IMG/VR virus record: IMGVR_UViG_3300045988_154566
Location: 6,167-70,166 of that record
Origin: a virus
Length of the DNA stretch: 64,000 nucleotides
Direction: 5' to 3' (one strand)
Numbering within the stretch: the stretch's first letter is position 1; each line of letters starts with the position of its first letter. The translations under genes were made by a program, and so were the position numbers. Positions 43,412-59,735 of this stretch are shown here, piece by piece. Under the pieces are notes generated by a model that made no database searches, was not told where the DNA came from, and was given only the letters and a program-made list of their open reading frames with translations.

Positions 43412-43421
43412 GAGGAATTGA

Positions 43422-45713
43422 ATGAATAGCAATGATTATTTACAAGATTATTCTTTCTTAAAAGAATTAGATAATGAAAGAATAAAAGTTTATTATGTTA
43501 AAATCATTGTTTTAACATTAGATGAACTTCCTATTAGAGCTATTGAAGGAAGAGTCGGGGCCGGCTCTTCTATATCAATAGCCGCGAATTCTGCGGTTCG
43601 TAGAACATGTAGTTTAAATTTTGTTGCAGAAGATTCTGATAATGATTTAAGAGATATTGATAACTTATTAAGTATGAATAGAAAGATTAAAATACTTATA
43701 GGTTTTGAAAATACAATTAATGATAAATATGATAAGATAGTGTGGTTTCCGCAAGGAATTTATGTTATTAATCAAATTTCTTTAACACATAGTATGACAG
43801 GAGTTAATGTTTCAATCTCTTGTAAAGATAAGATGTGTTTATTAAATGGAGAAAATGGTGGTAATTTCCCTACTTCTGTTACATTTAATCCATATGACCA
43901 GTTATATGGTTATATGAAAATTGATTATGATAGTGATGATATACCATTTCCTGCAGATTATAATGATTATACAATTTATGGATTTTATAGTACTGTTACA
44001 AAAAGTATTTCTTATTATTATCATAGTAAAGATACTGGTTTATGGACAGAGGGCGGAGAAGATTTAATCAACTCTACAGTTTCTATTGAAACAAAAATAT
44101 ATGATATTATTCAAACAGTTGTGTGTAACTATGGTGGAGAATCTATAGATAAAATTTTAATTAGCGACATTCCGCTTCGTATAAAACAGTTGTCTCATTA
44201 TGGTGGTTCTAATGTTTTATATTACAATAATAAGAACAATTATTATACTACTAATGAGAAGTATGTTGCAGAAGATACAAGGAGCAATACAGAGGAGACT
44301 TCCGCATGGCAGCAATTTTCTTTTAATGAAGATGTTGGATATGAATATGTTGATTTTGTTTATCCTAAAGAGCTTACTGGCGGAATGGGGGATAATGTTT
44401 GTACTATCTTAGACACTATTGTTTCCACGCTAGGCAATTATGAATACTTTTATGATATAGATGGAAATTTTGTTTTTCAAGAGAAAAAGAATTATCTTAA
44501 TAATTCTTATACTCCTGATAATTATTATAGATTAGATAATGGAAAGCCAATGGCTTTAAATAGTTTAAATAATATGGTTGTATTAGATAATACTAATTAT
44601 CAAGTTGATTTTACTGGAAACACTGAATCTGTATATACCTTTAACGAAGGTAATGGGCTAATATCATCTTATTCAAATAATCCTTCTTATACAAATATTA
44701 AGAATGATTATCATATTTGGGGTAAAGATGATAATTCTAATGCTATTCATTATCATTTAGTTATAAAAGAAAAGCCTAAAATAGAAAATGAATATAAAGT
44801 TATTTTCTTAAAAAATATAGATGGTCAGTATAATGGTAAAATTAGATTAGCTTTACCTAATGAAATAAATGCTATGCTAGAATATAATGAGAATCAAAAG
44901 TCTCTTGATATGAGCGGCAATGCTTCATTTAAGTATGATGAAAAAAGTGGTACTTATATCATTGATACTAATTATTATGGTCAAGTAGATAAATCTGCAT
45001 TGCAAATTGATGGTAATACAATTTATAATTATATTCCGGATGATTGGCGTGCAGAGATATACTTACAAGGTTTAACAAAGTTACAAGCTTCTCAGAGACC
45101 AGATATTTATGAACAAGAATTATTAGATAATTTTAATTCTATTTATGAGTTTTGTTATTATAATGAAGATAATGAATTCATTCCGCATGGTCGTTTTAAA
45201 GAAGATGTATTTAAGCCAAATAATTTAAAATATTATATTGACTATTTAGAACCCGTTGATAGTATGTATGATTTCTCTGTTGATGCTATCAATAGTAAGA
45301 TATATACTTATCAGCAAGATAGTATTAAGAAAATTTATGATAGAGATGTTCCAAATGTTATTTTAATAGATATCAACGATGAACAAAGAGATTCTCTTAT
45401 AAAAGAATGTGAATTAGCGGGACAGACTTATTCAAATATTGATTCCGCATTGTTTAAGAATATTATTCCAACGACAGTAGGATATTCTGCTGCGGAAATA
45501 GCTAGACAAGCGCTATATCAATATATTACTTATAATGAGTCAATTTCACTTCAAAGTAGACCTATTTATTATTTAGATGTAAATAGAAGAATTACAGTAG
45601 AAGATAAAGCATCAAAGATATCAGGAGATTATATTATATCATCTATCTCAATGCCATTAGATGCGTCTGGCAGTATGTCTATAACAGCCACTCGCGCAGC
45701 AGATAGGTTATAA
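43422..45713 (+). CDS. baseplate or tail-associated structural protein (763 aa)
   Basis: GGAGG ribosome-binding site, tail module. Confidence 0.45.
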   Translation: MNSNDYLQDYSFLKELDNERIKVYYVKIIVLTLDELPIRAIEGRVGAGSSISIAANSAVRRTCSLNFVAEDSDNDLRDIDNLLSMNRKIKILIGFENTINDKYDKIVWFPQGIYVINQISLTHSMTGVNVSISCKDKMCLLNGENGGNFPTSVTFNPYDQLYGYMKIDYDSDDIPFPADYNDYTIYGFYSTVTKSISYYYHSKDTGLWTEGGEDLINSTVSIETKIYDIIQTVVCNYGGESIDKILISDIPLRIKQLSHYGGSNVLYYNNKNNYYTTNEKYVAEDTRSNTEETSAWQQFSFNEDVGYEYVDFVYPKELTGGMGDNVCTILDTIVSTLGNYEYFYDIDGNFVFQEKKNYLNNSYTPDNYYRLDNGKPMALNSLNNMVVLDNTNYQVDFTGNTESVYTFNEGNGLISSYSNNPSYTNIKNDYHIWGKDDNSNAIHYHLVIKEKPKIENEYKVIFLKNIDGQYNGKIRLALPNEINAMLEYNENQKSLDMSGNASFKYDEKSGTYIIDTNYYGQVDKSALQIDGNTIYNYIPDDWRAEIYLQGLTKLQASQRPDIYEQELLDNFNSIYEFCYYNEDNEFIPHGRFKEDVFKPNNLKYYIDYLEPVDSMYDFSVDAINSKIYTYQQDSIKKIYDRDVPNVILIDINDEQRDSLIKECELAGQTYSNIDSALFKNIIPTTVGYSAAEIARQALYQYITYNESISLQSRPIYYLDVNRRITVEDKASKISGDYIISSISMPLDASGSMSITATRAADRL

Positions 45714-45730
45714 TATTAGAAAGGAGAATA

Positions 45731-46480
45731 ATGAATTATAGTATTGGGCAATACAATAATATAAATGAATCTTTACAGATTATGAGTCCTGTGAATCAAA
45801 GCGGCGACCCATATGAAGTAGAGACTGTAATTGAAGATACTGGTATTGTTTTTAAAGACCCCGCAGTTAAATTAAGTGGGTCTTTATCTAGTAATAACAA
45901 TTATTTTTTACATTGTAAAATAAAACGACTTAGTACAGAACAAACCTTTTATATTAAGTTAAGAACCGCGGATGATGCAGAAACAAAAGAACAAAATATT
46001 AAGATTGTAACTGTAAAACAAGGTGCGGGATGGTTTGACCTTCAAATAGTTTTTAATCCAATTATAAATTCTTTTAATGAAATTTTATTTAATTTAACAA
46101 GAAGTACAATTGATTATACTAGTACTCCAAGAAAACCAATTATTATTTTTGAAGAATTATCTGAATTACAAAATTTATTAGGCGGAAGTGCAATTCCCGC
46201 AAGTGTAGTTTTAAAATTAGGAGTTCAAGCAGGACCAGGTCTTAATATGTGTATTAATGGAGAAGGTGTTATGGTTGGTAATAGTGGAAAATATGAAGTT
46301 AATAATGGAAAAGTTTATGTAACTTTTCTTTCTATTGTTACAACCGCAACAGATACAGATATAGAAGATAAGCAAGCTGAAAATAAAACAATCTGTTTAT
46401 TTAACAGAGTGGATGGAGATAATAGAGTACGAAAAGTACGACCATTTACTATTGATTATATTTATGAGGAAGGAGAATAA
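45731..46480 (+). CDS. baseplate or tail structural protein (249 aa)
   Basis: AAGGAG ribosome-binding site. Confidence 0.4.
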   Translation: MNYSIGQYNNINESLQIMSPVNQSGDPYEVETVIEDTGIVFKDPAVKLSGSLSSNNNYFLHCKIKRLSTEQTFYIKLRTADDAETKEQNIKIVTVKQGAGWFDLQIVFNPIINSFNEILFNLTRSTIDYTSTPRKPIIIFEELSELQNLLGGSAIPASVVLKLGVQAGPGLNMCINGEGVMVGNSGKYEVNNGKVYVTFLSIVTTATDTDIEDKQAENKTICLFNRVDGDNRVRKVRPFTIDYIYEEGE

Positions 46481-46483
46481 TAA

Positions 46484-48163
46484 ATGGAAAGCTTTTATGG
46501 CGGAAGACAAGGTAAATCATTTATTCTAGTTGACCATTTTGACACAATTGCGGATATGGAAAAATGCTTTGCCGCAGGTGGTAGTACAACAGATAGAGTG
46601 AATTATGGCGAATATGTTATTATTGATACTATCATAAATAGACATGATAAACAAGATTTGAACAATGGCAAAGTCTATATGCGTAAGATAGATAATACTG
46701 CAGAATATATAGGTCAAATTGTAGGACCACAAGGTAATTGTCCTATTGTTGATTTTCAAGAATTTAATGACCCTAACCATTATTTAACTGATGGTACACA
46801 GATTTCTACTATTTCTAATACAGGACTCGTACCAGGTAAAGATAGCGCGGGTAATTATAATGATAGTGTAACTACTAAATGGGGAATCATGAGAGACAAA
46901 TATAATAATGTAATAGGCTGTTATATTGGTTTAAAGTTTCCTTATTTAGTTGAAGATTATACTGCAACAAGCGTTTCTGCATATGTAGATGCATCTATTG
47001 ATAAAATAGAAGATGAGCATCCATTTTATAAGAAATGGAGAATTAATGTTCCAAAAGGTATTAAAGGTGATGCTGTTACTGGAGTTGAAACAGTAACAAA
47101 TAGCGAAAGACAATATTATAGATTTACAATTACTAACTATGATAATTCAGCTCCAACAACAAGAACTGTTGATTTTGATTATAATATTATCAGTGGTATT
47201 ACCGTTGCGGATAATGGTACTTTAACAATATCATTAACTTGCCATGATGACATTATATTTAGCAATAGATTAAGATGGATTGACCAAATGGTGTTAAGCG
47301 ATACTGGTATTTTAAGTGTTAAATATAATAATATTGATAGCTCAACTAATATTAATCAAGATAATCCAATTAGATGGGTTAATAACATGAATATTGCGGC
47401 AGATGGTAAAGTATCTACAACATATAACACTTCAACAACGCCGGTTATTATTAATAATGGCAATCCTATTAAATGGATTGAGTCTATATCATTTGCACAA
47501 AATGGTAAAGTTAGTGTAAAATATAATACACAAGAAACTGCTACAATAGTAAATAGTGAAAATCCTATTTTATGGATTGCCGCAATGTCGATTGATGATG
47601 AAGGTCATGTCGTTGCTACCATGAATGATAATAGTGAAAAGAAATCAACTGGTCATTTAAAGTGGTTTGATAATGTCACACTCGCGGCAGATGGTACACT
47701 TACTTTTGTTTATCATAATTCAGAAGATGGAAACGTTATTTTTAGTAAAGCTATTAAATGGATTAGTGGTATTAAAGTTAATACAGGAGATAGTGAAGGC
47801 GAAGGAAATCAAAAGCTTAATATAAGTTATAATAATGGAACTAATGAAGATATTGGTAATCCTATTAACTATATTATGGAAGCTATTGTCTCTCAACCAA
47901 ATGTTGAAAATTCAACAGCAGAACCTTACCATTTATTGATTTTATATGCGGACCCTGCATATCGTGCAGCTTTAGTCTCACCAGTTAGTTATCCGAGTCA
48001 GAAATTTAATACTTTAAGAACAGATTGGTTTGATGCGGGTATGATTCGTGGAGAAAAAGGTGAAGTGACTGGAATAGTTCCAAGTCAGATTATTAGTACA
48101 TCTGCAGATAGCTTAGTAGAGAATGGTATCTTATTAAATACAGTAACAATAAAACATGCTTAG
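46484..48163 (+). CDS. tail fiber or baseplate protein (559 aa) with internal (I/V)(K/R)W(I/V) repeats
   Basis: Repeated RWIDQM, IRWVNNM, IKWIESI, ILWIAAM, LKWFDNV, IKWISGI motifs about every 30-40 aa. Confidence 0.45.
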   Translation: MESFYGGRQGKSFILVDHFDTIADMEKCFAAGGSTTDRVNYGEYVIIDTIINRHDKQDLNNGKVYMRKIDNTAEYIGQIVGPQGNCPIVDFQEFNDPNHYLTDGTQISTISNTGLVPGKDSAGNYNDSVTTKWGIMRDKYNNVIGCYIGLKFPYLVEDYTATSVSAYVDASIDKIEDEHPFYKKWRINVPKGIKGDAVTGVETVTNSERQYYRFTITNYDNSAPTTRTVDFDYNIISGITVADNGTLTISLTCHDDIIFSNRLRWIDQMVLSDTGILSVKYNNIDSSTNINQDNPIRWVNNMNIAADGKVSTTYNTSTTPVIINNGNPIKWIESISFAQNGKVSVKYNTQETATIVNSENPILWIAAMSIDDEGHVVATMNDNSEKKSTGHLKWFDNVTLAADGTLTFVYHNSEDGNVIFSKAIKWISGIKVNTGDSEGEGNQKLNISYNNGTNEDIGNPINYIMEAIVSQPNVENSTAEPYHLLILYADPAYRAALVSPVSYPSQKFNTLRTDWFDAGMIRGEKGEVTGIVPSQIISTSADSLVENGILLNTVTIKHA

Positions 48164-48167
48164 TATA

Positions 48168-48197
48168 GGGCGGCTTAATTGCCGCCCATTTTTTTTA
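48168..48197 (+). terminator. intrinsic terminator
   Basis: Hairpin GGGCGGCttaattGCCGCCC followed by ATTTTTTTT. Confidence 0.7.
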
Positions 48198-48265
48198 TTG
48201 GTCAAAGTTTTGTAATTTATTAATTGAGATTTTTATATTATATATAAATATGGAGGTGTTGTTTA

Positions 48266-48481
48266 ATGAGTAAAAGTGATTCATCTAAGTTCATCTCACA
48301 AATAACACTTGGAGAAGATAAAGTTGTATTAAAAGACCCAAATGCTATTGAGAGAGAAAAAGATAGTGATGTTGAAGCTGTTTTAAATTTTGTAAATGGT
48401 TTTAATATTTTTGGTATGAATATAACTTTAAACAAGGAAGATAATACGATTAATTTTGGAAAACAGGAGGGTGAAGAATGA
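48266..48481 (+). CDS. small protein, paralog of 48478-48822
   Basis: Shared KDPNAI...E(K/D)S...NF(V/S)NG...FG(M/I)...D..IN FG pattern. ATGA overlap with the next gene. Confidence 0.5.
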   Translation: MSKSDSSKFISQITLGEDKVVLKDPNAIEREKDSDVEAVLNFVNGFNIFGMNITLNKEDNTINFGKQEGEE

Positions 48482-48822
48482 GTGATAAAGTAAGTACGAA
48501 GATTACTTTTGAAAATGAAGTTTATACTGTAAAAGACCCAAATGCAATAAATAAATATGAAGATAGCGCTGATTCTGATGAAGTACAAGGTCAGGGTGAT
48601 GTAACTGGAATTTTAAATTTTTCAAATGGAATGAAATTATTTGGAATTACTGGTGTTGATTATGATAAAGATACTGAAACAATTAACTTTGGGGAATATA
48701 ATCCTGAAGATAATGCGCCAGTATATAAATTTAAAATAATGACAGAAGATGAGTATTCTGTTTTAACTGATAAAGACCCTTATACTTTTTATTTATTAGA
48801 AAAAAGTAGTAAGGAGGAATAA
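48478..48822 (+). CDS. small protein, tandem paralog, with C-terminal DEYxxLxxKDPYTFYLL motif
   Basis: See the paralog above. C-terminal motif resembles the C-terminus of the fiber 50734-52287. Confidence 0.5.
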   Translation: MSDKVSTKITFENEVYTVKDPNAINKYEDSADSDEVQGQGDVTGILNFSNGMKLFGITGVDYDKDTETINFGEYNPEDNAPVYKFKIMTEDEYSVLTDKDPYTFYLLEKSSKEE

Positions 48823-50720
48823 TGCAAGAATATTATTTAGATAGCAATGATAATAAAACTAAATCAAGTTTTTATCAAGATATTAATAGTGGTATATATA
48901 ATAATGTTGCTATTGGTAAAATATATTTTGATAATAAGTTACTTTGGACTGCGCCAAAGAAAAAATATGCTATTATTAATACAAATGCTTTAAATAAAAT
49001 TAGAATGTCTGAAGGAGACCAATATAATTATTTAGGTAATGATTTGAATTTTATTAAAAGTGCTTTACCAGAGCAATATAATGTTGCCTTAGAGGGGTCT
49101 ACTGCCGCAATTTATGCAAAAGAAGGAAAATTATATTCTTTTGCAGACTATGCATATTTTGATACATTAGAATTGTTAAGTCAGAAAATTGGGTTATTTA
49201 AAGAACCTGGTATTTATAATAACAATCCTTCACAAATGAATATTAATTTTTTAAATTCTCAAATCTATTTTAATAAAGTTTTTAATAATTATTCAGATAC
49301 TTGTTTTTTTACTTTTCAGAATACTTCTATTGGAATGGATTTTAATAATTTTACTTTTCCAAAAAACATTACTCATTTGAATTTTACTTTTTCAAATGCA
49401 TGGGGATTGGCAATGTCATTGCCGGTATGTCCAAATACAGTTTTAGATATGATAGGGACTTATGAAGATGCTGGAGGCGGCGTTTACTATAATAATATTT
49501 TAAATCAATATTGCAGACTTACAAATTGTTACTCTAGTAAATGGGCGCCATTGTTCTTCGGAGATGGTTATTACCATAGTCGAGGAGGAACTGTTATTGG
49601 AGATAATGTTATAAAGATGGATAGAACTTTTCAAAATTCAGCTTTATATTTTTATCATCCTGATTATAATTTATTTGGACCTAATACGAGTTGGCTATTA
49701 AATACTTATAGAAATTGTCAATCTCTTGAATGCACTAATTTTAATAATAATTTTTTTCATAATAATATTGGTATTGCCTCATGGACTTTCGCAGATTGTA
49801 GAAATTTACGTGCAGTTACTGTAGGATGTTTAAACAAAAAAGCTCAATTATCTGGAATTTATTATAATTGTCCAAATATTCAAACTGTAGATATTGATGC
49901 AGATGTAACTTCTTTATATTATGGTAATGAGGATACTCCTTTTTATTGGAATATTGGTAGTGGAAATAATTATAAACATAATATCAATGTATATATAACA
50001 AATTATTATGGAGATGGAAAGTTATTAGATGCATGTTGGTTATATAAAATGTTTGATGATTATTCTGTTGTAAATAAAGTTGAATTAAATCAAGCGAGAA
50101 ATCTTGTAAATATTGCTTACTGTTGTAGCTATCTTGATGAACTTACAACTTTTATTCTTTATGGAAATAATATTGTAAATATGGACCACTGTTGTGCAGG
50201 ATGTTATAATTTAGTGAATTTTTATCAATCTGATGGTTGGTATTATGGAAATTATGGTAGTAACTTAATAGATGCAAGCCATGCTTTCTATAAGTGTGGA
50301 AATTTATCATTTTTTTCATCACTTATATTTAAGTCTAGAAATTTACAAAAAATAGATTATGCTTTTTCTCAATGTCAAAATTTGAGAAATATAAATGCAT
50401 ATAGTGGACCATGGAGTGTAATTGGCGGAAATCAATTAATTGAAATTAATAATCCTTTTGATAATTGTTTTAATCTAGGAGGAAATTTATTCTTTTCTTC
50501 AGAAAATATAAGAATGGCAAATTTAGGTTGTGAGAATAATCATAACAATATTTTAAATATATTTATTAAATCAAATACTTTAACAAATAATAGTTTTAGT
50601 AATAAGTATGGAAAAAATATTTGGTCTAATAATAATGGATATGATGATGCTGTGAATAATATTTTTATATATTATGCAGATAAACATCAGCATTATTATA
50701 TATATGAGAATTGGGGATAA
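48822..50720 (+). CDS. BspA-type leucine-rich-repeat (LRR_5-like) protein; receptor-binding candidate
   Basis: Repeated AFxxCxNLxxI pattern: WTFADCRNLRAV, IAYCCSYLDEL, HCCAGCYNLVNF, AFYKCGNLSFF, YAFSQCQNLRNI. N/Y/F-rich. Confidence 0.55.
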   Translation: MQEYYLDSNDNKTKSSFYQDINSGIYNNVAIGKIYFDNKLLWTAPKKKYAIINTNALNKIRMSEGDQYNYLGNDLNFIKSALPEQYNVALEGSTAAIYAKEGKLYSFADYAYFDTLELLSQKIGLFKEPGIYNNNPSQMNINFLNSQIYFNKVFNNYSDTCFFTFQNTSIGMDFNNFTFPKNITHLNFTFSNAWGLAMSLPVCPNTVLDMIGTYEDAGGGVYYNNILNQYCRLTNCYSSKWAPLFFGDGYYHSRGGTVIGDNVIKMDRTFQNSALYFYHPDYNLFGPNTSWLLNTYRNCQSLECTNFNNNFFHNNIGIASWTFADCRNLRAVTVGCLNKKAQLSGIYYNCPNIQTVDIDADVTSLYYGNEDTPFYWNIGSGNNYKHNINVYITNYYGDGKLLDACWLYKMFDDYSVVNKVELNQARNLVNIAYCCSYLDELTTFILYGNNIVNMDHCCAGCYNLVNFYQSDGWYYGNYGSNLIDASHAFYKCGNLSFFSSLIFKSRNLQKIDYAFSQCQNLRNINAYSGPWSVIGGNQLIEINNPFDNCFNLGGNLFFSSENIRMANLGCENNHNNILNIFIKSNTLTNNSFSNKYGKNIWSNNNGYDDAVNNIFIYYADKHQHYYIYENWG

Positions 50721-50733
50721 AAGGAGGGTTTAA

Positions 50734-52287
50734 ATGAAAAATTGGAACTTTAATGGTTCATTAAAAGAAAATAATAAAAGAGTTCTTACAGAAGCAGAAG
50801 GTTCTGTTAATATGATTAGCGCAAGAAAAGACCCTTCTGTATCTTTTAATAATGATAATGGCACATTAAAAATGACATTAAACATTCCCGCTGGTGGAGG
50901 CTCTGGAAGTGGCGGAGGAGAAACTGAATCTGGAGTAGGTAGAACTTATGTAACTAAAGATGGTGAAAGCCGTGGAGAATATTTTAATGTTTATGAAGCA
51001 CCTGAAGGAACTGATTATATTGGAAATGCATGGGGGCATGGCTCTCATGCAGAGGGCGGAAATTTATGGAGAAGTGATGTTTCTCAAACACCTTTTTATT
51101 TAGAGTATGATGCAGAAAAAATACCTTATGATATAATAGCTAGAGATACTCTTTTTATAGCAGGGTCTTGCGTATATATTCATACCTCTGCAGCGATAGG
51201 CTTAAATTCTCATGCTGAGGGATATCAATGTATTGCTGCGGGAGATGCTTCTCATGCAGAAGGATACAAAACGTTTGCAGATAGTAGTGCATGTGGAGCG
51301 TCGCATGCTGAGGGGTATAAGACAAGTGCAACTGGTAAATACAGTCATGCAGAAGGTTATAATACGGTAGCTAGTGGAGGTGCATCTCATGTAGAAGGTA
51401 CTAGTGCAAAAGCTACTGGATGGTGTTCTCATGCAGAAGGTAATTATACGACAGTGGAAGCCTCATATAGCCATGTAGAAGGTCGTGAAAATACTATCTC
51501 AGCGTCTGGATGTTCAAGTCATGTTGAAGGATTTAATAATAACCTTAAAGGTGCTAGAAATCATATTGAAGGTACAGATAATACAATAACAAATGATTAT
51601 GTTAAGGGTGTTCATATAGAAGGTGGAAGTAATACTTGTGACTTTGGTGTTTATAGTCATATTGAAGGACATAATAATATAGGTGATGATTCTTATTATT
51701 CGCATATTGAGGGAAAAAACAATAGAGATTATGGCAATTATAGCCATATTGAAGGATATAATAACGAATGTGATGATGCAAATTATTGTCATATTGAAGG
51801 AAGAGAGAACTCCACAGGCGATGGTGCTTATGAAAATCATATAGAAGGTAGCTATAATAGAAGTAATTATAATACTAAGTATTTTCATATAGAGGGACAG
51901 CATAACAATTTTTCTTATTGTAGAGGACCTGCGCATGTAGAGGGATCTAATAATACACAATCTGGATTTTCAGAAGACCCATACTTATATATGGAGAATA
52001 CTCATATTCAAGGGAAATATGCTAAAATAGATAAGACAATGTTTAAATATTCCCAATCATCTGGTAATTATAGAGATTTTAAATATGCTGATGTTGTAGG
52101 CGGTGGAACGAGTGACTCAGATAGAAAAAATATTTCAACTCTTGATTGGGATGGAAATCAAACAATAGCTGGAGAATTATATATCAAAAACTCAGACCAA
52201 CCACTTATTAAATGTTTAACACAATCTGAATATGATAATTTAGCTACTAAAAATCCATATACTTTATATCTTATAAAGGAGGCTTAA
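50734..52287 (+). CDS. tail fiber with about 20 tandem 14-16-aa SH[AIV]EG repeats
   Basis: Examples: SHAEGYKTSATGKY, SHAEGYNTVASGGA, SHVEGTSAKATGWC, ...HIEGKNNRDYGNY, SHIEGYNNECDD... N-terminal 55 aa are paralogous to 52418-53089. Confidence 0.6.
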   Translation: MKNWNFNGSLKENNKRVLTEAEGSVNMISARKDPSVSFNNDNGTLKMTLNIPAGGGSGSGGGETESGVGRTYVTKDGESRGEYFNVYEAPEGTDYIGNAWGHGSHAEGGNLWRSDVSQTPFYLEYDAEKIPYDIIARDTLFIAGSCVYIHTSAAIGLNSHAEGYQCIAAGDASHAEGYKTFADSSACGASHAEGYKTSATGKYSHAEGYNTVASGGASHVEGTSAKATGWCSHAEGNYTTVEASYSHVEGRENTISASGCSSHVEGFNNNLKGARNHIEGTDNTITNDYVKGVHIEGGSNTCDFGVYSHIEGHNNIGDDSYYSHIEGKNNRDYGNYSHIEGYNNECDDANYCHIEGRENSTGDGAYENHIEGSYNRSNYNTKYFHIEGQHNNFSYCRGPAHVEGSNNTQSGFSEDPYLYMENTHIQGKYAKIDKTMFKYSQSSGNYRDFKYADVVGGGTSDSDRKNISTLDWDGNQTIAGELYIKNSDQPLIKCLTQSEYDNLATKNPYTLYLIKEA

Positions 52288-52293
52288 TAAATA

Positions 52294-52395
52294 ATGATTT
52301 TTATGGGTACTTCTAATATACAAGATTTAAAATATGGTAATATAAACATCGTCCGAGTATATTGGGGAAATAATCTAATTTGGATAAAAATATAA
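52294..52395 (+). CDS. possible 33-aa micro-ORF between the fiber genes
   Basis: MIFMGTSNIQDLKYGNINIVRVYWGNNLIWIKI. GGAGG lies 11 nt upstream. Weakly supported. Confidence 0.2.
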   Translation: MIFMGTSNIQDLKYGNINIVRVYWGNNLIWIKI

Positions 52396-52417
52396 TAAAA
52401 GGAGGTTAAAATAATAA

Positions 52418-53089
52418 ATGAAGAATTGGAATTTTAACGGCTCCTTAAAAGAGAATGGCACAAGAGTATTAACTGACGCGGAAGGCGTAATTAATATGAT
52501 TGGCGCTAGAGAAGATGCAGAATGCAAATTCACAAATGATAATGGAAAATTAAAAATACTTCTTAAGATACCTGCGGGAGGCGGTACTGGTGGAAGTATA
52601 GATGTTGATGATGAAATTAGTGATACTTCTGAAAATCCAGTTCAGAATAAAGTAATTGCAGCAGCTTTAAAAAATGTGAAAATTCCAGTTGATGATGAAA
52701 TTAACGCGGAAAGCGAAAATCCAGTTCAGAATAAAGTGATTGCCGCAGAATTAGAAAAACTTTTTCAATCTGTCAGTGAAGGAAAACGACTTATAGCACT
52801 CGCCATCACTGACAGAGGTGTTATAACGAGTGCTACAGATAGTTTTGAACAGATGGCAAAGAATATTATGTCATTAAAGAGAAATGACTTAGATATTAGA
52901 GTTTCTGATACATTTAGTCCAGTTAAAATTGAGAGTTCATTTAAAATTGCGACAATGCAAGATTCTGTCGAGGTTAAGAGACAAGTACCAACAGCCGCGG
53001 TTATATCCGAAACATTTAAGCCTATTAAATTAGGTGGCGGATTTAGAATTGCAGGAATGGCTGATTCTGTTGAGTTTGATAAGATATAA
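52418..53089 (+). CDS. short tail fiber paralog (shared N-terminal domain, distinct C-terminus with internal duplications)
   Basis: N-terminus MKNWNFNGSLKEN..RVLT.AEG..NMI.AR.D....F.NDNG.LK..L.IPAGGG is shared with 50734. DDEI..ENPVQNKVIAA is duplicated. Confidence 0.55.
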   Translation: MKNWNFNGSLKENGTRVLTDAEGVINMIGAREDAECKFTNDNGKLKILLKIPAGGGTGGSIDVDDEISDTSENPVQNKVIAAALKNVKIPVDDEINAESENPVQNKVIAAELEKLFQSVSEGKRLIALAITDRGVITSATDSFEQMAKNIMSLKRNDLDIRVSDTFSPVKIESSFKIATMQDSVEVKRQVPTAAVISETFKPIKLGGGFRIAGMADSVEFDKI

Positions 53090-53266
53090 GATAATTGAAA
53101 CTACTACTATTGAAACTGTTGAAGCTGGAAAATATACCATCTGAAGTATGGAACTCTGCAATTGTAGGAGTCAGTTTTTCAAAATAAGATTTACATTATC
53201 AACCGCGGAAGATAGTGTCAGTAAAATTTTAATAGATTTTTCAAATTAAGAAAGGAGATAAAAGGA

Positions 53267-54598
53267 ATGGCGTTACATGGACACGCTAAAATTGAATTAA
53301 CAAACGCAAAGACTGGAGAAGTTCAGATTATTGAAGAAGATAATATGATTACTAATGGACTTGCTAATTTATTTTCTCAAATACCTTATATGTATGCAAT
53401 ATCTTCAGTACAAGACCAAAATTTACTAAATAATTTTTTACCTTTAAATAACAAGGCAATGGGAGGTCTATTATTATTTCAAAATCCTTTAAATGAGAGT
53501 ATAGATAATATTACAATACCTAAAAATTCAGACAATCCTATTATTGGTTATGCTTCAAATAATGTTAATAATGGTTCAGATATTAAAAGAGGTTCTCGTA
53601 ATTTAACTGAAAGTATTAAATTAGATAATGGTTATAAATTTGTATGGGATTTTTCAACATCTCAAGGTAATGGACAGATATCGGCTTTAAGCTTGACACA
53701 TGCTGATACGGGTTTAAATCCTATAAGTATGAATATAGTAGATACAGCACATGGCATATTAACATCACAGGATTCTAACATATATACTTATGTACAGTAT
53801 ATATGTGATTTTGATTGGAATTCTAATATTGCAACCTGTATTGAAACTATAGATTCAACGCATCTTAGAATTACAAAATTAAAAATAGTTATAGGTGATA
53901 CTATATCTATAAATGATAAGATTGGCTCAATATTTGTTATTTCTCAAACAACTAAAGAATTATCTACAGCATTAGCAAAAATTACTTACTTACATTGGAG
54001 TCCGAGTGATGATGATTACTATTATGGAATGGCAGGTGATAGTTATAATTCAGGTGGTACAATGTATTTTTATAGAATATCTAAATCAGATTATACATTA
54101 GATACAAATTTCACATTTACATGGAGAACAAATGTTTCTTATGTATATGGATATAATTCAAAATTAACACATAAAAATATATTATATATTGGTTCAAAAG
54201 ATAGGCAAATACTTAAAATAAATTTATCTACAAAAAATGTAGTCTCTATTAACGGTTTAGGTTATACAATTGTAAATGATAATAAAAGAGATATTCTTCA
54301 TGCTGGAAACATTTTTATTTTAGAAAATGGTAATATAGTATCTCGTAATAATACTGTAAATTTTTTTAATACTGGTACTAATGGAGATAATGAACAAGCA
54401 ATATTTATAGATTCAACTAAACGTAAAGTATTATGTATTAAAACATCATATTCTTATGGCAATGCTTATATATATTTTAATATAGGTATACTAAAAGATT
54501 ATCTTGCAACTATTAATAATCTTGATACTCCAATAACTAAAACTTCAGACCAAAGTATGAAAATTACTTACACAATTACAGAAGTGGAGGATAAATAA
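53267..54598 (+). CDS. tail fiber or receptor-binding candidate (443 aa)
   Basis: AAAGGAGATAAAAGGA ribosome-binding site. N/Y/S/T-rich, beta-rich. Confidence 0.4.
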   Translation: MALHGHAKIELTNAKTGEVQIIEEDNMITNGLANLFSQIPYMYAISSVQDQNLLNNFLPLNNKAMGGLLLFQNPLNESIDNITIPKNSDNPIIGYASNNVNNGSDIKRGSRNLTESIKLDNGYKFVWDFSTSQGNGQISALSLTHADTGLNPISMNIVDTAHGILTSQDSNIYTYVQYICDFDWNSNIATCIETIDSTHLRITKLKIVIGDTISINDKIGSIFVISQTTKELSTALAKITYLHWSPSDDDYYYGMAGDSYNSGGTMYFYRISKSDYTLDTNFTFTWRTNVSYVYGYNSKLTHKNILYIGSKDRQILKINLSTKNVVSINGLGYTIVNDNKRDILHAGNIFILENGNIVSRNNTVNFFNTGTNGDNEQAIFIDSTKRKVLCIKTSYSYGNAYIYFNIGILKDYLATINNLDTPITKTSDQSMKITYTITEVEDK

Positions 54599-55032
54599 TG
54601 ACAGCAACTGTAATAAATAGCTTAACTAAAAAAGCTGAAAATTCAGATACTACATACCAAATTGCAGTAAAACAATTTCTAGTAGAACCTTTAAGAGGTT
54701 CTACTGGAGTTAATAATCTTGAAGAACAATTTTTATTAGGAATTGATTGTGTAACAACAGAACAAGAAGATTCTAGTACGCATGTAAAAACAATAGTACA
54801 AGAATTTAGAAACGCGGATTCTGTTACAACTAATTATTATACAATCACTTCAACTATACAACCAGGACCAAGTGCGGGATACACTGCCGCGTATACTGAG
54901 ACAGAAAGACATGTTCTTTCTTTTGTTTCTGCGGCGGGCACTGTTACTGTGGCAACTAAGGTTGTATCAAAAAAGAAAGAAAATAATATTACTTCTACTA
55001 AGACAGTAATTACAAATAGTTTGGCGGGTTAA
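54598..55032 (+). CDS. hypothetical T/S-rich protein (fiber-associated)
   Basis: ATGA overlap with the upstream gene. Confidence 0.4.
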   Translation: MTATVINSLTKKAENSDTTYQIAVKQFLVEPLRGSTGVNNLEEQFLLGIDCVTTEQEDSSTHVKTIVQEFRNADSVTTNYYTITSTIQPGPSAGYTAAYTETERHVLSFVSAAGTVTVATKVVSKKKENNITSTKTVITNSLAG

Positions 55033-55051
55033 AATACCCGCCTTCTTTTTT
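55023..55051 (+). terminator. intrinsic terminator
   Basis: Hairpin GGCGGGTtaaaatACCCGCC followed by TTCTTTTTT. Confidence 0.7.
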
Positions 55052-55136
55052 GTAGTTAGCTGTAATCTAATTTTCTTTGTCAATTCGGACAAGTTTTCAT
55101 TTTAAAAAATAATCGTATGTCTCCTGTTAAATTGCG

Positions 55137-55196
55137 AATTTCTACACGAATCAATTAAAATTTTCCAAAATTTCGTGACAATTCTACACAAATCAC
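55137..55196 (+). promoter_or_regulatory. direct repeats AATTTCTACACGAATCA and AATTCTACACAAATCAC upstream of the 55243 gene module
   Basis: Two 17-nt imperfect direct repeats about 43 nt apart. TATAGT lies at 55212-55217. Confidence 0.3.
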
Positions 55197-55242
55197 TTAA
55201 CGCTATTTTTATATAGTATTGCAAGGGAAAGGAGAAAGAAAA

Positions 55243-55653
55243 ATGTATAATCAAATGCCTTATTTTGGTCAACAAACTCAGTCGCCGTATAGCTTGCCAC
55301 AATACTACCAGCAAGCACCAACGCCGCAACCACAGTTTGTAGCACCACAACCACAACAACCTGCATTAAAGGGAAGACCGGTTTCATCAATAGATGAGGC
55401 TAAAGCCTCTCAGATTGATTTTGATGGAAGTTTATATCTATTTCCAGATATTGCCAATAAAAGAATTTATACAAAACAAATAGGTGAAAATGGAATAGCT
55501 ATAATGAATTCTTATTCTTTGCAAGAAGAAATTTCCACCCTTCCGCAAGAGTATGTAACTAAGGAAGAGTTTGACAAGGTTGTTGCGCAATTAAAGTCTC
55601 TATTGGAAGAAAGAGATAAAAAAGAAACACCGAAAGCAACTATGAGTTTTTAA
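55243..55653 (+). CDS. Q/P/Y-rich protein
   Basis: GGAGAAAG ribosome-binding site. N-terminus MYNQMPYFGQQTQSPYSLPQYYQQAPTPQPQFVAPQPQQP. Confidence 0.5.
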   Translation: MYNQMPYFGQQTQSPYSLPQYYQQAPTPQPQFVAPQPQQPALKGRPVSSIDEAKASQIDFDGSLYLFPDIANKRIYTKQIGENGIAIMNSYSLQEEISTLPQEYVTKEEFDKVVAQLKSLLEERDKKETPKATMSF

Positions 55654-55665
55654 TAGGAGGTTTTA

Positions 55666-55902
55666 ATGAGTAATGGAATAAATCCAATGCAACTACTTGG
55701 AATGATTAGAAATGGTTCTAACCCACAGCAATTAATGCTGTCAATTTTAGAACAGAATCCTAACATGAAGACATTAACAGATTTAGCAAAAGCTAATAAT
55801 GCAAGTGGTATTGAGAATTTTGTTAGAAATTATGTTAATAGTCAAGGCGGGGATTTTGATAAAGATTTTAATGCCTTTAAACAAATGTTGGGCGTTAAAT
55901 AA
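55666..55902 (+). CDS. hypothetical small protein
   Basis: AGGAGG ribosome-binding site. Confidence 0.45.
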   Translation: MSNGINPMQLLGMIRNGSNPQQLMLSILEQNPNMKTLTDLAKANNASGIENFVRNYVNSQGGDFDKDFNAFKQMLGVK

Positions 55903-55929
55903 ATAAATTTTATAAGGAGGACAAAAGAA

Positions 55930-56718
55930 ATGTTCAATTCAAACAGTGGTTATTCATTAGCCGATATTGCTGCGGCAACCGGCAATAATAACTGTAACAA
56001 TGGCGGATGGAATGACGGAGGCGCCTGGTGGATTATTATCTTGTTCTTATTCTGCTTTGCTGGCGGATGGGGAAATGGACGAGGTGGACTCTTCGGAGGT
56101 TCAGATTCTACAGGTAGTGGTATAACAGATGGTTATATCTTAACTTCAGATTTTGCTAACATCGAAAGGAAAATAGACAATGTAAACAACGGTATCTGCG
56201 ATGGATTCTATGCTATGAATACTGGTATGTTAAATGGCTTCGGTCAGGTAAATAACAATATTACACAGCAAACAATAGCAGACATGCAGAATACTAACGC
56301 AGTAACTGCTCAGATTACTGCATTAGGTACTCAGATGAGTCAATGCTGCTGTGATAACAAATATCAATCTGCAACACAAGCTGCTGACTTAAATTATCGC
56401 TTAGCTGAACAGAGCTGCCAGACTCGCCAGGCTATCGCGGACGCTGCACAGGCAGTAACATTAGGAAATGATGCTAATACTCGTAGCATCTTAGCTGCTA
56501 TCCAGGATATGAATACTCAAGCATTACAAGATAAGATTGCTACTCTTACAGCAGACAATCAAGCTCTTAAGTTTGCTGCTTCTCAGCAAGCTCAGAATGC
56601 TTACCTTGTTCACACTTTAGCACCAAGCCCAAATCCTGCATATATTGTTCCTAATCCTTATACAGGAAATTATGGATACAATAACTGCGGTGGATGCGGT
56701 TGTGCATGCGTAGGTTAA
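55930..56718 (+). CDS. Gly/Trp-rich membrane protein with Q/A/N-rich coiled coil and Cys-rich C-terminus
   Basis: NNCNNGGWNDGGAWWIIILFLFCFAGGWGNGRGG transmembrane segment. CCCDNKYQ motif. C-terminal NNCGGCGCACVG. Confidence 0.5.
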   Translation: MFNSNSGYSLADIAAATGNNNCNNGGWNDGGAWWIIILFLFCFAGGWGNGRGGLFGGSDSTGSGITDGYILTSDFANIERKIDNVNNGICDGFYAMNTGMLNGFGQVNNNITQQTIADMQNTNAVTAQITALGTQMSQCCCDNKYQSATQAADLNYRLAEQSCQTRQAIADAAQAVTLGNDANTRSILAAIQDMNTQALQDKIATLTADNQALKFAASQQAQNAYLVHTLAPSPNPAYIVPNPYTGNYGYNNCGGCGCACVG

Positions 56719-56734
56719 TTTAAGGAGGTCTATA

Positions 56735-57157
56735 ATGGAGATTACAGCAAATGCAGTTCAAACAGTAACAGCAAATTCAAATGTAATATTTACAGACACT
56801 CCGGTGTCAGGTAATTGCTCTATTGTTCACAGAGAAGGCTCAGGTCTCGTAAAGTTACGCGGCCTGACTTCTACTCAATGTAGAGCAAGATTTAGAGCTA
56901 GTTTTGGAGCAAATATCGCATTGCCAGATGGCGGTACTGCTGGTCCAATTTCAGTAACTATCTCTCTTGATGGAGAACCAATCTCTGCTACTAGGATGGT
57001 TGTTACACCAGCCGCAGTTAATAATTATTTTAATGTTTCTGCGGATATCTTTATAGATGTACCTAAAAATTGTTGTGCTACAGTGGCAGTTACAAATACA
57101 AGTGGAGTAACTATTGTAGTACAGAACGCTAATTTAATTGTTGAGCGAGTAGCTTAA
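56735..57157 (+). CDS. BclA C-terminal-domain-like (C1q/TNF-like jelly-roll) protein without collagen repeats
   Basis: AAGGAGG ribosome-binding site. About 140 aa, beta-rich, ending ...VVQNANLIVERVA. Pattern resembles the Bacillus BclA C-terminal domain, which ends ...IIIEKVA. Similarity judged from memory. Confidence 0.4.
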   Translation: MEITANAVQTVTANSNVIFTDTPVSGNCSIVHREGSGLVKLRGLTSTQCRARFRASFGANIALPDGGTAGPISVTISLDGEPISATRMVVTPAAVNNYFNVSADIFIDVPKNCCATVAVTNTSGVTIVVQNANLIVERVA

Positions 57158-57171
57158 AGAAAGGAGTCCTT

Positions 57172-57732
57172 ATGAATAACTTAAAAAGTATGAAAGAGCA
57201 ATTAACCAGTGTTGTCCAAGCACAAATGGGAAATATGCAAAATGTAAGTGCTAAAGAGTTAGGCGAAGCTGTTGATATGATAAAGGACCTCTCTGAAGCT
57301 ATTTACTATTGTACAATTACAGAAGCTATGGAAGCAAAAGAAAAGGAAGAACATGAATATGGTAATGTTCATTATTATACAGACAAAAGGTATCCAGATT
57401 ACTACAGAGATGTAGATAGAGAATACGGAAGAATGTATTATGATGATAAACCTGGTGCAGGAACTGGATATACTGGTACACGAATGATGTATACAGAACA
57501 AATTCCAAAGACAATGATGCGTGATTCTAGAGAAGGTAGAAGTGGTATGAGCCGCCGCATGTATATGGAATCTAAAGAAATGCACAAAGATAGTGCTACC
57601 CAAATGCATGAGTTAGATAATTATATTAAAGAATTAGGTAGTGATATCACAGAAATGATAAAAGATTCTACTCCAGAAGAAAAACAAGTTCTCCAACAGA
57701 AAATAGCTAATTTAGCTGCAAAGATAAAATAA
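57172..57732 (+). CDS. Tyr/Arg/Met-rich hypothetical protein
   Basis: AAGGAG ribosome-binding site. Central region HYYTDKRYPDYYRDVDREYGRMYYDDKPGAGTGYTGTRMMY. Confidence 0.45.
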   Translation: MNNLKSMKEQLTSVVQAQMGNMQNVSAKELGEAVDMIKDLSEAIYYCTITEAMEAKEKEEHEYGNVHYYTDKRYPDYYRDVDREYGRMYYDDKPGAGTGYTGTRMMYTEQIPKTMMRDSREGRSGMSRRMYMESKEMHKDSATQMHELDNYIKELGSDITEMIKDSTPEEKQVLQQKIANLAAKIK

Positions 57733-58049
57733 TGAAAATAAATGGTATTGATTGGAGGGTTTACTTTGTTGAAAAAGATAATGAAAAATTACAAAGAAGC
57801 GATGGCTCATATACCCTCGGTTCATGCGATAATAATACTAATATTATTTATCTTAGAGAGGATTTGTATGGAAGGTCATTGAAGAAAGTCTTATGTCATG
57901 AGTTAGCGCATGCGGCAATGTTTTCGTATCAAATTAATTTGACATTAGACCAAGAAGAACTAATTGCAGATTTTATTGCAACCTATGGAGAAGAAATTAT
58001 TGATATTACAAATTTTCTTTTTAATAAGTTAAAGGAGAGGTCTTATTGA
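57732..58049 (+). CDS. small HExxH zinc-metallopeptidase-like protein
   Basis: LCHELAHAAM motif. ATGA overlap with the upstream gene. Confidence 0.45.
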   Translation: MKINGIDWRVYFVEKDNEKLQRSDGSYTLGSCDNNTNIIYLREDLYGRSLKKVLCHELAHAAMFSYQINLTLDQEELIADFIATYGEEIIDITNFLFNKLKERSY

Positions 58050-58066
58050 CCTCTCCTATTTTTTTT
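58033..58066. terminator. bidirectional terminator between convergent modules
   Basis: Hairpin AGGAGAGGTCttattGACCTCTCCT followed by T8. Lies between the plus-strand 58049 stop and the minus-strand 58070 stop. Confidence 0.7.
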
Positions 58067-58069
58067 GTC

Positions 58070-58594
58070 TTAAAAAGCAGACTTAGTAGGTATACTATTA
58101 GCCTTAACTTTCTGAGCACTTGTAGTTCCATTTTTTAAATAAGCATCTAAAATACAGATAGCATCTGCTTCATCATCATTAACTGTTTTATTATAATTAT
58201 TCTTTACATATGCTATATCTGCCGCTTTTAACTTATCTCTTGTAACTCCACGTCCAGTATGAATACCAATAGCACTTCTCCAGGAATTTGGTAATATTGT
58301 TTCAATTTTTATATTCTTATTATATTCCCAGACCGCAACTCTTAAGCATCCTTGTAACCAATTTAATTTTTGATTAACTGTTGAATTGTGCGTATACTCT
58401 GCATGAACCTCTTCTATTACTATTGTATCTATATCATATTTTTTTATAAGTTTTAGTATTTCATCTCGCATATATGCGATTCTTTTTTCTATTGATGTAC
58501 TTGCGGAAGCTATGCATCCTGATTCTCTTGTTTCTCCATTTTTAATACTCCAACCTGTTGATTTAGTACTGGCATCTAATGCTAATATATTCAT
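58070..58594 (-). CDS. ruvC: RuvC-family Holliday junction resolvase
   Basis: MNILALDASTKSTGWSI N-terminal catalytic Asp motif. Acidic residues DTIVIEEVH and DEADAICILDAY. Confidence 0.7.
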   Translation of the reverse strand: MNILALDASTKSTGWSIKNGETRESGCIASASTSIEKRIAYMRDEILKLIKKYDIDTIVIEEVHAEYTHNSTVNQKLNWLQGCLRVAVWEYNKNIKIETILPNSWRSAIGIHTGRGVTRDKLKAADIAYVKNNYNKTVNDDEADAICILDAYLKNGTTSAQKVKANSIPTKSAF

Positions 58595-58767
58595 TGTCTT
58601 TTTCTCCTATCTAAAATTTGATTTAAAAAAATCCAAAACCTAATTTTGTCTTCTATTTACGAGTGTCTACAGCCTGAGCAGACTTTTTCTCTTACATTTA
58701 GTATACCAAATTTTTTCTTTAGAGTCAATGAGTCTAATGTAGAAAATAAAAAAAAATGGAGAGTGAA

Positions 58768-59019
58768 TTAACACTCTCCATCAAACATGCAAATAAAATT
58801 TTTATGTTCTCTATTACAATACTCTTTCATCAGTCTATTATGATAATATTCTAAGTCTTTAAAAGTAATAAACTTATTTCCAACATTATCACACATATCA
58901 TTGGCAACGATTTTCTCTGCTGTTATTACTCCAGTTTTTAAATTATTTGCATCAATAGTAGTTGAAATATTACTTATTTCCGGAAGAACCAAAACCGCCA
59001 TCTCCTCTATCTGTCTCAC
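58768..59019 (-). CDS. hypothetical protein (its 5' end overlaps the dUTPase gene; true start uncertain)
   Basis: ORF track only. Confidence 0.3.
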   Translation of the reverse strand: MRQIEEMAVLVLPEISNISTTIDANNLKTGVITAEKIVANDMCDNVGNKFITFKDLEYYHNRLMKEYCNREHKNFICMFDGEC

Positions 59020-59428
59020 TTAAATCACTAACTTCTGTGAACTCCATTGATTGATATGGTAATAAAATCATCTGCGCAATTCTATCTCCAGGCGCGATAA
59101 CTGTATTTCTATTCGAGTCATTATGAATAGCTACAATAACCTCACCTCGGTAGTCACAGTCAACCACGCCTACGCAATTAGCTGGTCTAAGTCCCTGCTT
59201 AGTAGCTAATCCACTTCTAGCAAAAATTCCCGCAAAGAATCCTTCAGGTAACTCAAAGGCTAAACCAGTCCCAATCTTAACAGTTTCTTCAGATTTAATT
59301 GTAATTGGTGTATCAATAGCTGCATAAAGGTCATATCCAGCAGCATACTGCGAACCCTGAGTAGGAATAAGAGCGTCATCCCGCAATTTCTTAACATTAA
59401 CCATAAATGTATTACTTAAAAGACTCAT
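58970..59428 (-). CDS. dut: dUTP diphosphatase (trimeric dUTPase)
   Basis: Motifs AGYDL, RSGL, GVVDCDYRGE, RIAQMIL, RGDGGFGSSG. Confidence 0.9.
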   Translation of the reverse strand: MSLLSNTFMVNVKKLRDDALIPTQGSQYAAGYDLYAAIDTPITIKSEETVKIGTGLAFELPEGFFAGIFARSGLATKQGLRPANCVGVVDCDYRGEVIVAIHNDSNRNTVIAPGDRIAQMILLPYQSMEFTEVSDLSETDRGDGGFGSSGNK

Positions 59429-59721
59429 TAATCTTCATCCTCCTCATCTTCTCTTGTTACTGTTGGAAAACTACCAAATTTTCTTGAATAATCCACTGAA
59501 ATAGTAGAATCTGGCTCTTTTTCTTCCTGGAATACTCTATTAAGAGTAACACGATACCATGACTGAACAACTTCGCCTTTAACTTTCTGTTCTTTATATT
59601 CTGATGAATACTTTGCTAAGATAGAAGTTTTTTCATTCTTAGCTTCTTCAATAAGAGCTTTTGCTTCAGATTCTGAATCTACTCTCCACTGCTCTTGCGT
59701 TTTTATTAAATACTTTGACAT
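59428..59721 (-). CDS. hypothetical protein with acidic C-terminus
   Basis: ATG at 59721 with AAAGGAG ribosome-binding site. The ORF track extends to 59772. Confidence 0.4.
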   Translation of the reverse strand: MSKYLIKTQEQWRVDSESEAKALIEEAKNEKTSILAKYSSEYKEQKVKGEVVQSWYRVTLNRVFQEEKEPDSTISVDYSRKFGSFPTVTREDEEDED

Positions 59722-59735
59722 TTTATTAACTCCTT

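Follow-up and report, generated by a model that had tools for sequence, protein, structure and literature searches.

The window analysed here, a stretch of 64,000 nucleotides from a virus, contains a tail module in which an open reading frame of 3081 amino acids corresponds to the tape measure protein and a tail-fibre gene lies downstream of it (50734..52287, + strand, 517 aa). The assignment of the fibre gene is based on the ORF list, a C-terminal Phage_tail_C motif, tblastn matches, and synteny in related contigs. The proteins matched by tblastn are annotated as tail spike or tail fiber and are encoded by Flavobacterium and Verrucomicrobia phages. The portal protein is 33-38% identical to the portals of Firmicute phages of 134-142 kb, namely Enterococcus EF1/VRE9, the gut phage Phass-1, and Brevibacillus Sundance, and the contigs that carry close fibre homologues are 110-150 kb long. 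A megablast search of positions 40000-60000 against GenBank phages returned no match. The phage is probably large (~140-150 kb) and siphovirus-like, with a low-GC gut Firmicute as its host.

The fibre is built from several distinct parts. Its first 58 residues (50734..50907, + strand), which are followed by a Gly/Ser linker, match the start of the product of the next gene, a second, short fibre paralogue of 223 aa (52418..53089, + strand; PHROG 26419, tail fiber protein), with 71% identity over 58 aa. In almost every one of 36 close relatives, this N-terminal module is conserved to 90% or more; it is presumably the attachment domain. Because the two proteins begin alike, their sequences suggest two fibres docking through one common N-terminal module. 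An isolated first SHAEG layer (aa 104-108; 51043..51057, + strand) is invariant in an alignment of 37 close relatives (alignment A1). It is separated from the second layer by a 50-aa insertion (51058..51207, + strand), which was modelled by AlphaFold2 with low confidence (pLDDT 34-49). Among relatives, this insertion exists as two alternative alleles, the identity to the query in this bin being either ~100% or 30-40%.

Two blocks of layers come next. The SHAEG-type block consists of seven layers, mostly of 14 aa (aa 159-261; 51208..51516, + strand), with the consensus S-H-A/V-E-G-x-x-T-x-A-x-G-x-x; its units fall in register with the layers of the adhesin BpaC, and it was modelled with pLDDT values of 68-87 (AlphaFold2). 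The H[IV]EG-N-type block consists of ten layers, mostly of 15-16 aa (aa 262-422; 51517..51999, + strand), and has position 6 occupied by Ile or Val and position 11 by Asn. The array is closed by a capping layer, THIQG, in which His is retained and Glu is replaced by Gln, together with a conserved post-repeat region (YADVVGGGT...DWDGNQTIAGELY; 52000..52215, + strand). Comparable caps, such as QHVQG, SHASG, and others, terminate arrays throughout the SHAEG family. The protein ends with the Phage_tail_C motif (PF24243, a 26-residue motif; aa 495-515; 52216..52278, + strand), which exceeds its cut-off of 23.7 bits with a score of 27.9 and is present in all close relatives. A Pfam scan of the single fibre sequence detected nothing but this motif, and YadA_head gave no match at E<=1. 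The A1 profile also matches the C-terminus of the upper fibre gp68 of phage 80alpha (6v8i, E 0.011).

The fibre holds 19 H-[AIV]-[EQ]-G motifs, and 18 of these 19 are exact H[AIV]EG. By chance, 0.036 such motifs would be expected on average, and never more than 2 arose in any of 20,000 residue shuffles. The tandem repeats that the original prediction had described in this product are thus borne out, and the three example units it quoted are all found there. Its figure of about 20 tandem copies is to be corrected to 17 in tandem plus 2 outliers: motif 1 stands isolated at aa 105, and a degenerate THIQG lies at aa 424, 23 aa past the last tandem motif. The first tandem motif lies at aa 160 and the last at aa 401, and successive motifs are 14 (eight times), 15 (three times), 16 (four times), or 17 aa (twice) apart, so that the period of 14-16 aa put forward earlier holds for most units within an actual range of 14-17 aa. 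The location given for the array (51040-51960) was also right, except that its true end lies at ~52014. As for the motif itself, Gly follows H-x-E in 17/17 tandem units. The His of the proposed SH start is confirmed, and the preceding Ser is present in only 11/17 tandem units and missing in 6/17. The array comprises two sub-types, SHAEGxxTxAxGxx (aa 159-261) and xH[IV]EGxxNxxxxxxY with longer layers (aa 262-422).

A recent expansion of these units is contradicted by their alignment at the DNA level. Pairs of 42-nt unit cores are 51% identical on average and 79% at most, exact direct repeats in the region reach no more than 15 nt, and the conserved Ser is encoded by TCN as well as AGY codons. 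Since the mean unit identity is only 51% and no exact repeat exceeds 15 nt, no recent expansion has taken place; the repeat units are old, diverged, and kept by selection on the protein. The same figures bear on the view of the region as a recently expanded, recombination-prone low-complexity repeat without defined structure. Weak tandem arrays detected in the repeat DNA by Tandem Repeats Finder (69-72% matches) and the varying copy number among relatives (7-20) fit that view. It conflicts, however, with the unit identity and the longest repeat, with the use of both Ser codon families, with conservation that is strictly position-specific in the family logo, and with the confident modelling of the repeat region (pLDDT 70-87, aa 150-400), and it was rejected as barely credible. 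The repetitiveness of the DNA had also been taken as the cause of a recombination hotspot. The intragenic identity does not support this cause, and the hotspot survives only in the sense of module shuffling between related phages.

In a related contig, the fibre gene is 87.5% identical at the nucleotide level and 84% at the amino-acid level, compared with 94-99% nucleotide identity for neighbouring genes, which makes the fibre the most divergent gene of its block. The segment 52453-54531 is replaced in the related contig L001 by a different gene of 387 aa, and the paralogue at 52418..53089 is absent there. The first 80 and the last 40 residues are constant across the 36 close relatives. Between these ends, 7-20 layers are arranged in shuffled blocks, the insertion after layer 1 occurs in its two alleles, and the H[IV]EG block is independently present or absent. 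Within the layers of the relatives, variation is absent from positions 5, 7, and 8 and strongest at positions 2, 3, 9, 10, 12, and 14. Judged by these comparisons, the fibre displays the pattern of a host-range determinant, produced in all likelihood by module exchange between phages and not by slippage on its own DNA repeats.

The fold of the repeat was approached through homology. Of 8000 candidates scored in a homologue search, 6377 proteins passed at E<=1e-3. In many of these homologues, PF05658 (YadA_head) is combined with the fibre chaperone domain PF13884 or PF11962, and many end in Peptidase_S74, an intramolecular chaperone of trimeric fibres. When the A1 profile was compared with the PDB, it matched a series of solved adhesin heads: BpaC (7o23, E 1.7e-19), CbpF (E 2.3e-6), 9gh4 (E 8.5e-5), 3wp8 (E 5e-4), YadA (1p9h, E 2.7e-3), and BoaA (3s6l, E 6.4e-3). 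The register in these alignments places n-S-H-A-E-G on N3-S4-T5-A6-N7-G8. A profile is required for such matches, as phmmer with the single sequence against the PDB yielded one weak Hep_Hag match (E 3.4). A family logo was derived from 1758 units of exactly 14 residues in 85 distant proteins, anchored on H.EG. It gives G1 78%, S4 81%, A6 83%, T11 80%, and A13 89%, with S14 also in the consensus; H5, E7, and G8 stand at 100% by construction, owing to the anchoring. When this logo is set against the canonical YadA repeat, GxNSVAIGAxSxAx (PMC9543794), the structural small residues all coincide and the differences are confined to positions 5 and 7. In the query, the small interior residues (Ser4, Ala6, Ser/Thr11, and Ala13) are in register for aa 159-261.

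The Pfam model of the head repeat recognizes the family unevenly. Distant SHAEG proteins exceed the YadA_head threshold with 50-67 bits, and the homologues P0027, P0036, P0038, and P0052 pass the cut-off with 25.9-67 bits. The SHAEG block of the query reaches 14.3 bits, under the cut-off of 25, and its H[IV]EG block receives no YadA_head score. A profile of the H[IV]EG block (alignment A2) has UspA1 as its only PDB match, and this match is marginal (E 0.024). The AlphaFold2 monomer model, computed with A1 as input, has a mean pLDDT of 62.5, with values of 70-87 over aa 150-400. A Foldseek comparison of the model with the PDB was uninformative; the matches in BFVD include the UniProt entry 'YadA-like head domain-containing protein [uncultured Caudovirales phage]'. 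Co-variation links positions 6 and 11: Ala6 occurs with Thr/Ser11 and Val/Ile6 with Asn11, with an odds ratio of 55 over all proteins and of 10 when the count is restricted to distant ones (p 5e-11). Layers that have Ile6 measure 15-17 aa. Both positions are predicted to face the interior of the chain's own roll, and their co-variation supports this fold.

By its sequence, the repeat can be identified as a phage version of the YadA-type 14-residue beta-roll layers and as a very common tail-fibre block, the family comprising 17,171 clusters at 50% identity with E<=1e-3 and 10,345 at 1e-10. The motif had been regarded as different from that of the HxH iron sites in myovirus fibre tips; H[AIV]EG belongs to an already known and very common repeat family, members of which are labelled YadA-like in databases. 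The SHAEG variant itself is without an experimental structure in the searched copy of the PDB, since a profile search of all PDB sequences contained no SHAEG-type chain among its matches.

The original expectation that this phage tail fibre contains a repetitive beta-solenoid is supported by the Phage_tail_C motif (27.9 bits) and by the position of the gene in the tail module, downstream of the 3081-aa tape measure. The intertwined triple beta-helix that had been named as a candidate gives way to a probable left-handed parallel beta-roll of the YadA type, with a separate roll for each chain. Intertwined shafts, with one strand per repeat, are exemplified by the triple beta-helix or beta-spiral of T4 gp5/gp12 or the adenovirus fibre. 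Such folds are frequent in phage fibres, a monomer prediction cannot reveal intertwining, and the 15-16-aa H[IV]EG block is only weakly linked by sequence to solved rolls. The homology to non-intertwined rolls is nevertheless significant and in register, the monomer model, confident over the repeats, suggests a self-contained roll, and positions 6 and 11 co-vary as expected of the chain's own interior. An intertwined shaft is therefore considered very improbable. The trimeric state of the fibre would follow from its homologues, many of which end in the Peptidase_S74 chaperone, and from the resemblance of its C-terminus to that of the 80alpha fibre gp68.

The closest structural relatives of this beta-roll are bacterial. 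With the YadA_head roll (PF05658, formerly Hep_Hag; YadA 1P9H, BoaA 3S6L, EibD 2XQH), the fibre has in common the 14-residue period, Gly8, Ser4, Ala6, Ser/Thr11, and Ala13 in register, and significant profile similarity; its monomer model suggests a fold of this kind. It differs in having invariant His5 and Glu7 where YadA has Val and Ile. It also differs in being a phage tail fibre in which no signal peptide region, stalk, or membrane-anchor domain was detected. Membership in the type Vc autotransporter adhesins was considered and rejected: Pfam found only Phage_tail_C in the fibre, with no YadA-type membrane anchor, coiled-coil stalk, or neck, and the gene belongs to a phage tail module. Without anchor or stalk, and with this genomic position, the protein is not an adhesin, and the head repeat is all that the two have in common.

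Individual adhesins differ from the fibre in further respects. In the C-terminal head of BpaC from Burkholderia pseudomallei (7O23), the core is neutral and water-filled, in contrast to the ionisable His and Glu at the predicted core positions of the fibre, for which there are signs of directional pairing, and the repeats result from recent triplet expansion (PMC9543794), unlike the old and diverged units described above. The UspA1 head of Moraxella catarrhalis (3PR7) demonstrates that layers of 15 residues are tolerated in rolls (PMC9543794). However, its YSTIGGG motif lacks His and Glu, and the H[IV]EG block matches it only marginally. The same repeat as in the query is found in SHAEG tail-fibre proteins from uncultured phages and from a small number of cultured ones, such as the tail spike of Flavobacterium phage vB_FspM_immuto. 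These proteins also share the caps (QHVQG...GNG...DW.GN), and their C-termini are often formed by the same Phage_tail_C or chaperone domains. Compared with them, the query adds a second block of 15-16-aa H[IV]EG-N layers, present in only a minority of relatives (e.g., P0068, P0125, and P0145), and a distinctive N-terminal module common to the neighbouring gene.

Positions 5 and 7, at which the phage repeat departs from YadA, make up the core around the three-fold axis of solved rolls. They are hydrophobic in YadA, whereas the core of BpaC is hydrophilic, with Thr/Ser5, Asn/Ser/Thr7, and buried ordered water (PMC9543794). From the register of the alignments, His5 and Glu7 would take these trimer-core positions, where adhesins have a hydrophobic core, and would be buried there. 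The original prediction had proposed an axial role for the regularly spaced His and Glu; as both fall on the axis-facing face in solved homologues, this was a reasonable idea. Side-chain orientation, burial, and trimer formation would in each case follow from homology rather than from the monomer model.

Conservation at these positions was assessed on 8155 H.EG units from 232 distant proteins. His5 and Glu7 are retained in >99% of in-phase units, the in-phase exceptions amounting to 38 single and 15 double cases. In the single exceptions, His is kept in 35/38, and Glu is replaced by Gln in 26 of these 35. In the double exceptions, the first layer lacks Glu and the second lacks His in 10/15. 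The ends of the arrays in the 232 proteins are asymmetric in a corresponding way. The layer preceding an array has Glu7 without His5 136 times and the reverse 30 times, and the layer following an array has His5 without Glu7 326 times and the reverse 4 times. Typical forms are SFAEG, SVAEG, and SYAEG before arrays and QHVQG, SHAGG, and SHASG after them, with THIQG in the query. Fisher tests of this asymmetry give p 7e-86 by occurrences and 5e-18 by distinct pentamers; both values are upper bounds on significance, because the sequences are related and their independence is overstated. The simplest reading of the array ends points to a directional ladder in which Glu of layer n would contact His of layer n+1.

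A different orientation of the repeat would place the His/Glu stripe on the exposed surface, where it could serve in receptor or polysaccharide binding, as a pH sensor, or in contacts with another virion protein. The rolls would then pack otherwise than in adhesin heads, or would not trimerise through this face. This arrangement would suit the usual location of charged residues on protein surfaces, and YadA-type heads are themselves ligand-binding domains (PMC9543794); moreover, the trimer packing is deduced from homology. A receptor-binding face should, however, vary with the host, yet the His/Glu face is invariant in >8000 units from diverse proteins and it is the opposite face that varies. 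The register fits the core positions of every solved roll, and the directional end-capping suggests an internal ladder that needs termination. Consequently, an exposed stripe is considered rather unlikely.

If the axial position of His5 and Glu7 is accepted, the nature of their contacts has to be considered. In a metal-coordinating shaft, axial His and Glu would bind Fe, Zn, Ni, Ca, or other ions and thereby staple the trimer. Phage fibres offer precedents in the HxH metal sites of the T4 gp37 needle (iron), of gp12 (zinc), and of the receptor-binding protein (RBP) stem of staphylococcal phages (phi11 Gp45). These proteins resemble the present fibre in having regularly spaced His-x-(His/Glu) directed toward the axis of a trimeric phage fibre. 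T4 gp37 and gp12 differ from it in their intertwined chains, strands along the axis, six-His ligand set, and widely spaced sites. Profile and fold searches linked the fibre to neither gp37 nor gp12, and the fibre has His-x-Glu in 18/18 exact units, with no HxH periodicity.

His together with a carboxylate is, nevertheless, a classic metal ligand set, both residues occupy axis-facing roll positions, and their retention in >99% of in-phase units is stricter than that of typical core positions. Several features weigh on the other side. The first layer of an array keeps Glu and the last keeps His, which is better explained by pairwise contacts across layers, and the commonest tolerated change, Glu to Gln, preserves hydrogen bonding and yields a poor metal ligand. 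Each layer of a beta-roll rises by ~4.8 A (PMC9543794), so that filling every layer with an ion would produce a cation column without precedent. The strand that carries positions 5 and 7 runs at right angles to the axis, from which it appears that the octahedral geometry of HxH sites could not be reproduced. In addition, Pfam scans of the fibre and of its repeat blocks matched no metal-binding family. Taken together, the asymmetry of the ends and the tolerated Glu-to-Gln change favour direct pairing over a symmetric metal site within a layer, and a metal-coordinating shaft appears doubtful. As a variant, a metal may be bridged between Glu(n) and His(n+1).

The proposed architecture, which is regarded as probable though by no means assured, is a trimeric fibre made of YadA-type roll layers with a His-Glu ladder as its core and a variable outer face for host specificity. 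Each unit of 14-16 residues would form one turn with two short strands. Ser4, Ala6, Thr11, and Ala13 would pack the narrow interior of the chain's own roll, Gly8 would form the turn, and positions 2, 3, 9, 10, 12, and 14 would point toward the solvent. The invariant His5 and Glu7 would lie on the sheet face around the three-fold axis. Three such rolls would associate as a trimer whose core, instead of being hydrophobic, would be a stacked ladder of hydrogen bonds or salt bridges, with Glu7 of layer n pairing with His5 of layer n+1. Selection would then act against arrays that open with a His or close with a Glu lacking its partner. Specificity for the host receptor would reside in the hypervariable outer face and in the exchangeable repeat blocks. 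Direct pairing and the receptor-binding role of the fibre are both deduced from the patterns described above and should be read as putative. A more far-reaching version, in which ionisable His-Glu pairs, buried and stacked along the whole axis, would act as a metal-binding or pH-/ion-sensitive lock on fibre stability or triggering, is speculative and seems improbable.

In the searchable literature, no paper on phage fibres with the SHAEG repeat was found, and the papers on PF05658/Hep_Hag/YadA_head all concern bacterial adhesins. Likewise, no description of the His/Glu core signature with directional capping was found in this literature; it constitutes a structural prediction for the whole family and is not specific to the window. 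For annotation, the gene can be described as a tail fibre with a YadA-like beta-roll shaft, a roll that Pfam misses on the single sequence. Given its variable outer positions and swappable blocks, the gene is likely to determine the host range of an uncultured gut phage. A family-wide rule emerges, comprising invariant His5/Glu7, directional capping, and 6/11 co-variation with layer length, and from it a charged core would be expected in a module that ranks among the commonest of phage fibres. If the reading of an ionic core is true, the SHAEG-type roll, which is used by >10,000 protein clusters, represents a structurally uncharacterised variant of the beta-roll trimer.

Some points speak against the proposed architecture. 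The query scores below the YadA_head threshold, its H[IV]EG block is only marginally linked to a solved roll, and the overall pLDDT is 62.5. In addition, 17 stacked layers of three buried Glu each would be electrostatically demanding unless His is protonated or cations are present.

On the opposite strand, the repeat region contains two open reading frames, one of 148 aa (51514..51960, - strand) and a second at 51202..51432 (- strand). Both run in the codon-aligned mirror frame of the repeats, and their ATGs are the reverse complement of the His codon CAT, which is used for 23/23 His residues of the fibre. Such antisense ORFs and their spurious nature had been correctly anticipated; their cause, by contrast, is not the repetition of the DNA but the amino-acid composition of the fibre. 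Genuine antisense genes were rejected on the grounds that CAT His codons and the Leu-poor composition explain the open frames. The antisense frames stay open because the protein is poor in Leu and lacks TTA, CTA, and TCA codons there: these codons are absent from the fibre for 152 and 87 codons, respectively, and its Leu content is 3.3%, compared with 8.4% in the tape measure protein.

The second type of repeat layer in the 517-aa tail fibre, the H[IV]EG layers of residues 262-422 (window 51517-51999), has a high content of Tyr, Asn, Asp and Cys. The cysteines repeatedly occupy position 4 of the layer, immediately before the histidine (YCHIEG), and are also found in the preceding loop (NNECDD, SYCRG). 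This pattern is kept in close relatives, and the cysteines may form disulfides or an extra surface feature. Two giant fibre-like homologues, P0125 (2904 aa) and P0145 (2788 aa), contain both SHAEG layers, the first repeat type, and H[VI]EG-N layers in long runs, and P0145 has CHVEG units by the dozen, with Cys at position 4. The long H[VI]EG-N runs indicate that the second layer type is widespread and able to dominate a protein.

A fibre paralogue of 223 aa is encoded on the plus strand at 52418-53089 and matches PHROG 26419, a tail fiber protein family. Its first 58 residues share 71% identity with the N-terminus of the fibre, so that one putative docking module is common to the two fibre genes. 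The SENPVQNKVIAA motif occurs twice in the paralogue, at residues 72 and 100. In the closely related contig L001, the flanks of this region are 95% identical, and one gene of 387 aa, which has a faint LRR_5 match, takes the place of both the paralogue and a 443-aa gene of phrog_19291, a family without assigned function (window 52453-54531 versus L001 7557-8720). On this comparison, 52453-54531 is a swappable cassette directly 3' of the fibre gene.

Immediately 5' of the fibre gene, after a 13-nt gap, lies the plus-strand gene for a 632-aa protein (48822-50720) with abundant Asn, Tyr, Phe and Cys, whose counterpart in the related contig is 93% identical. Pfam and PHROG searches gave no match for this protein; it carries recurring Cys-x-x-Leu and Asn-rich stretches, which may be units of the leucine-rich-repeat type by their appearance.

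The tape measure protein (3081 aa, 25288-34533, plus strand) has matches to PHROG tape-measure families, confined to its first ~600 residues. At roughly 1.5 Å per residue, its length implies a tail of ~460 nm by our own estimate, which is unusually long. The gene directly after it, on the same strand (34638-40076), encodes an 1812-aa protein that matched no PHROG family at E<=1e-3 and is likely to belong to the distal tail or the baseplate.

Elsewhere in the window, a sigma factor (phrog_5767) is encoded on the plus strand at 7603-8685 and NrdD (phrog_487, E 2.5e-203), a ribonucleotide reductase of the anaerobic class, on the minus strand at 60410-62578. The possession of its own sigma factor and NrdD fits a large phage with an anaerobic gut host.
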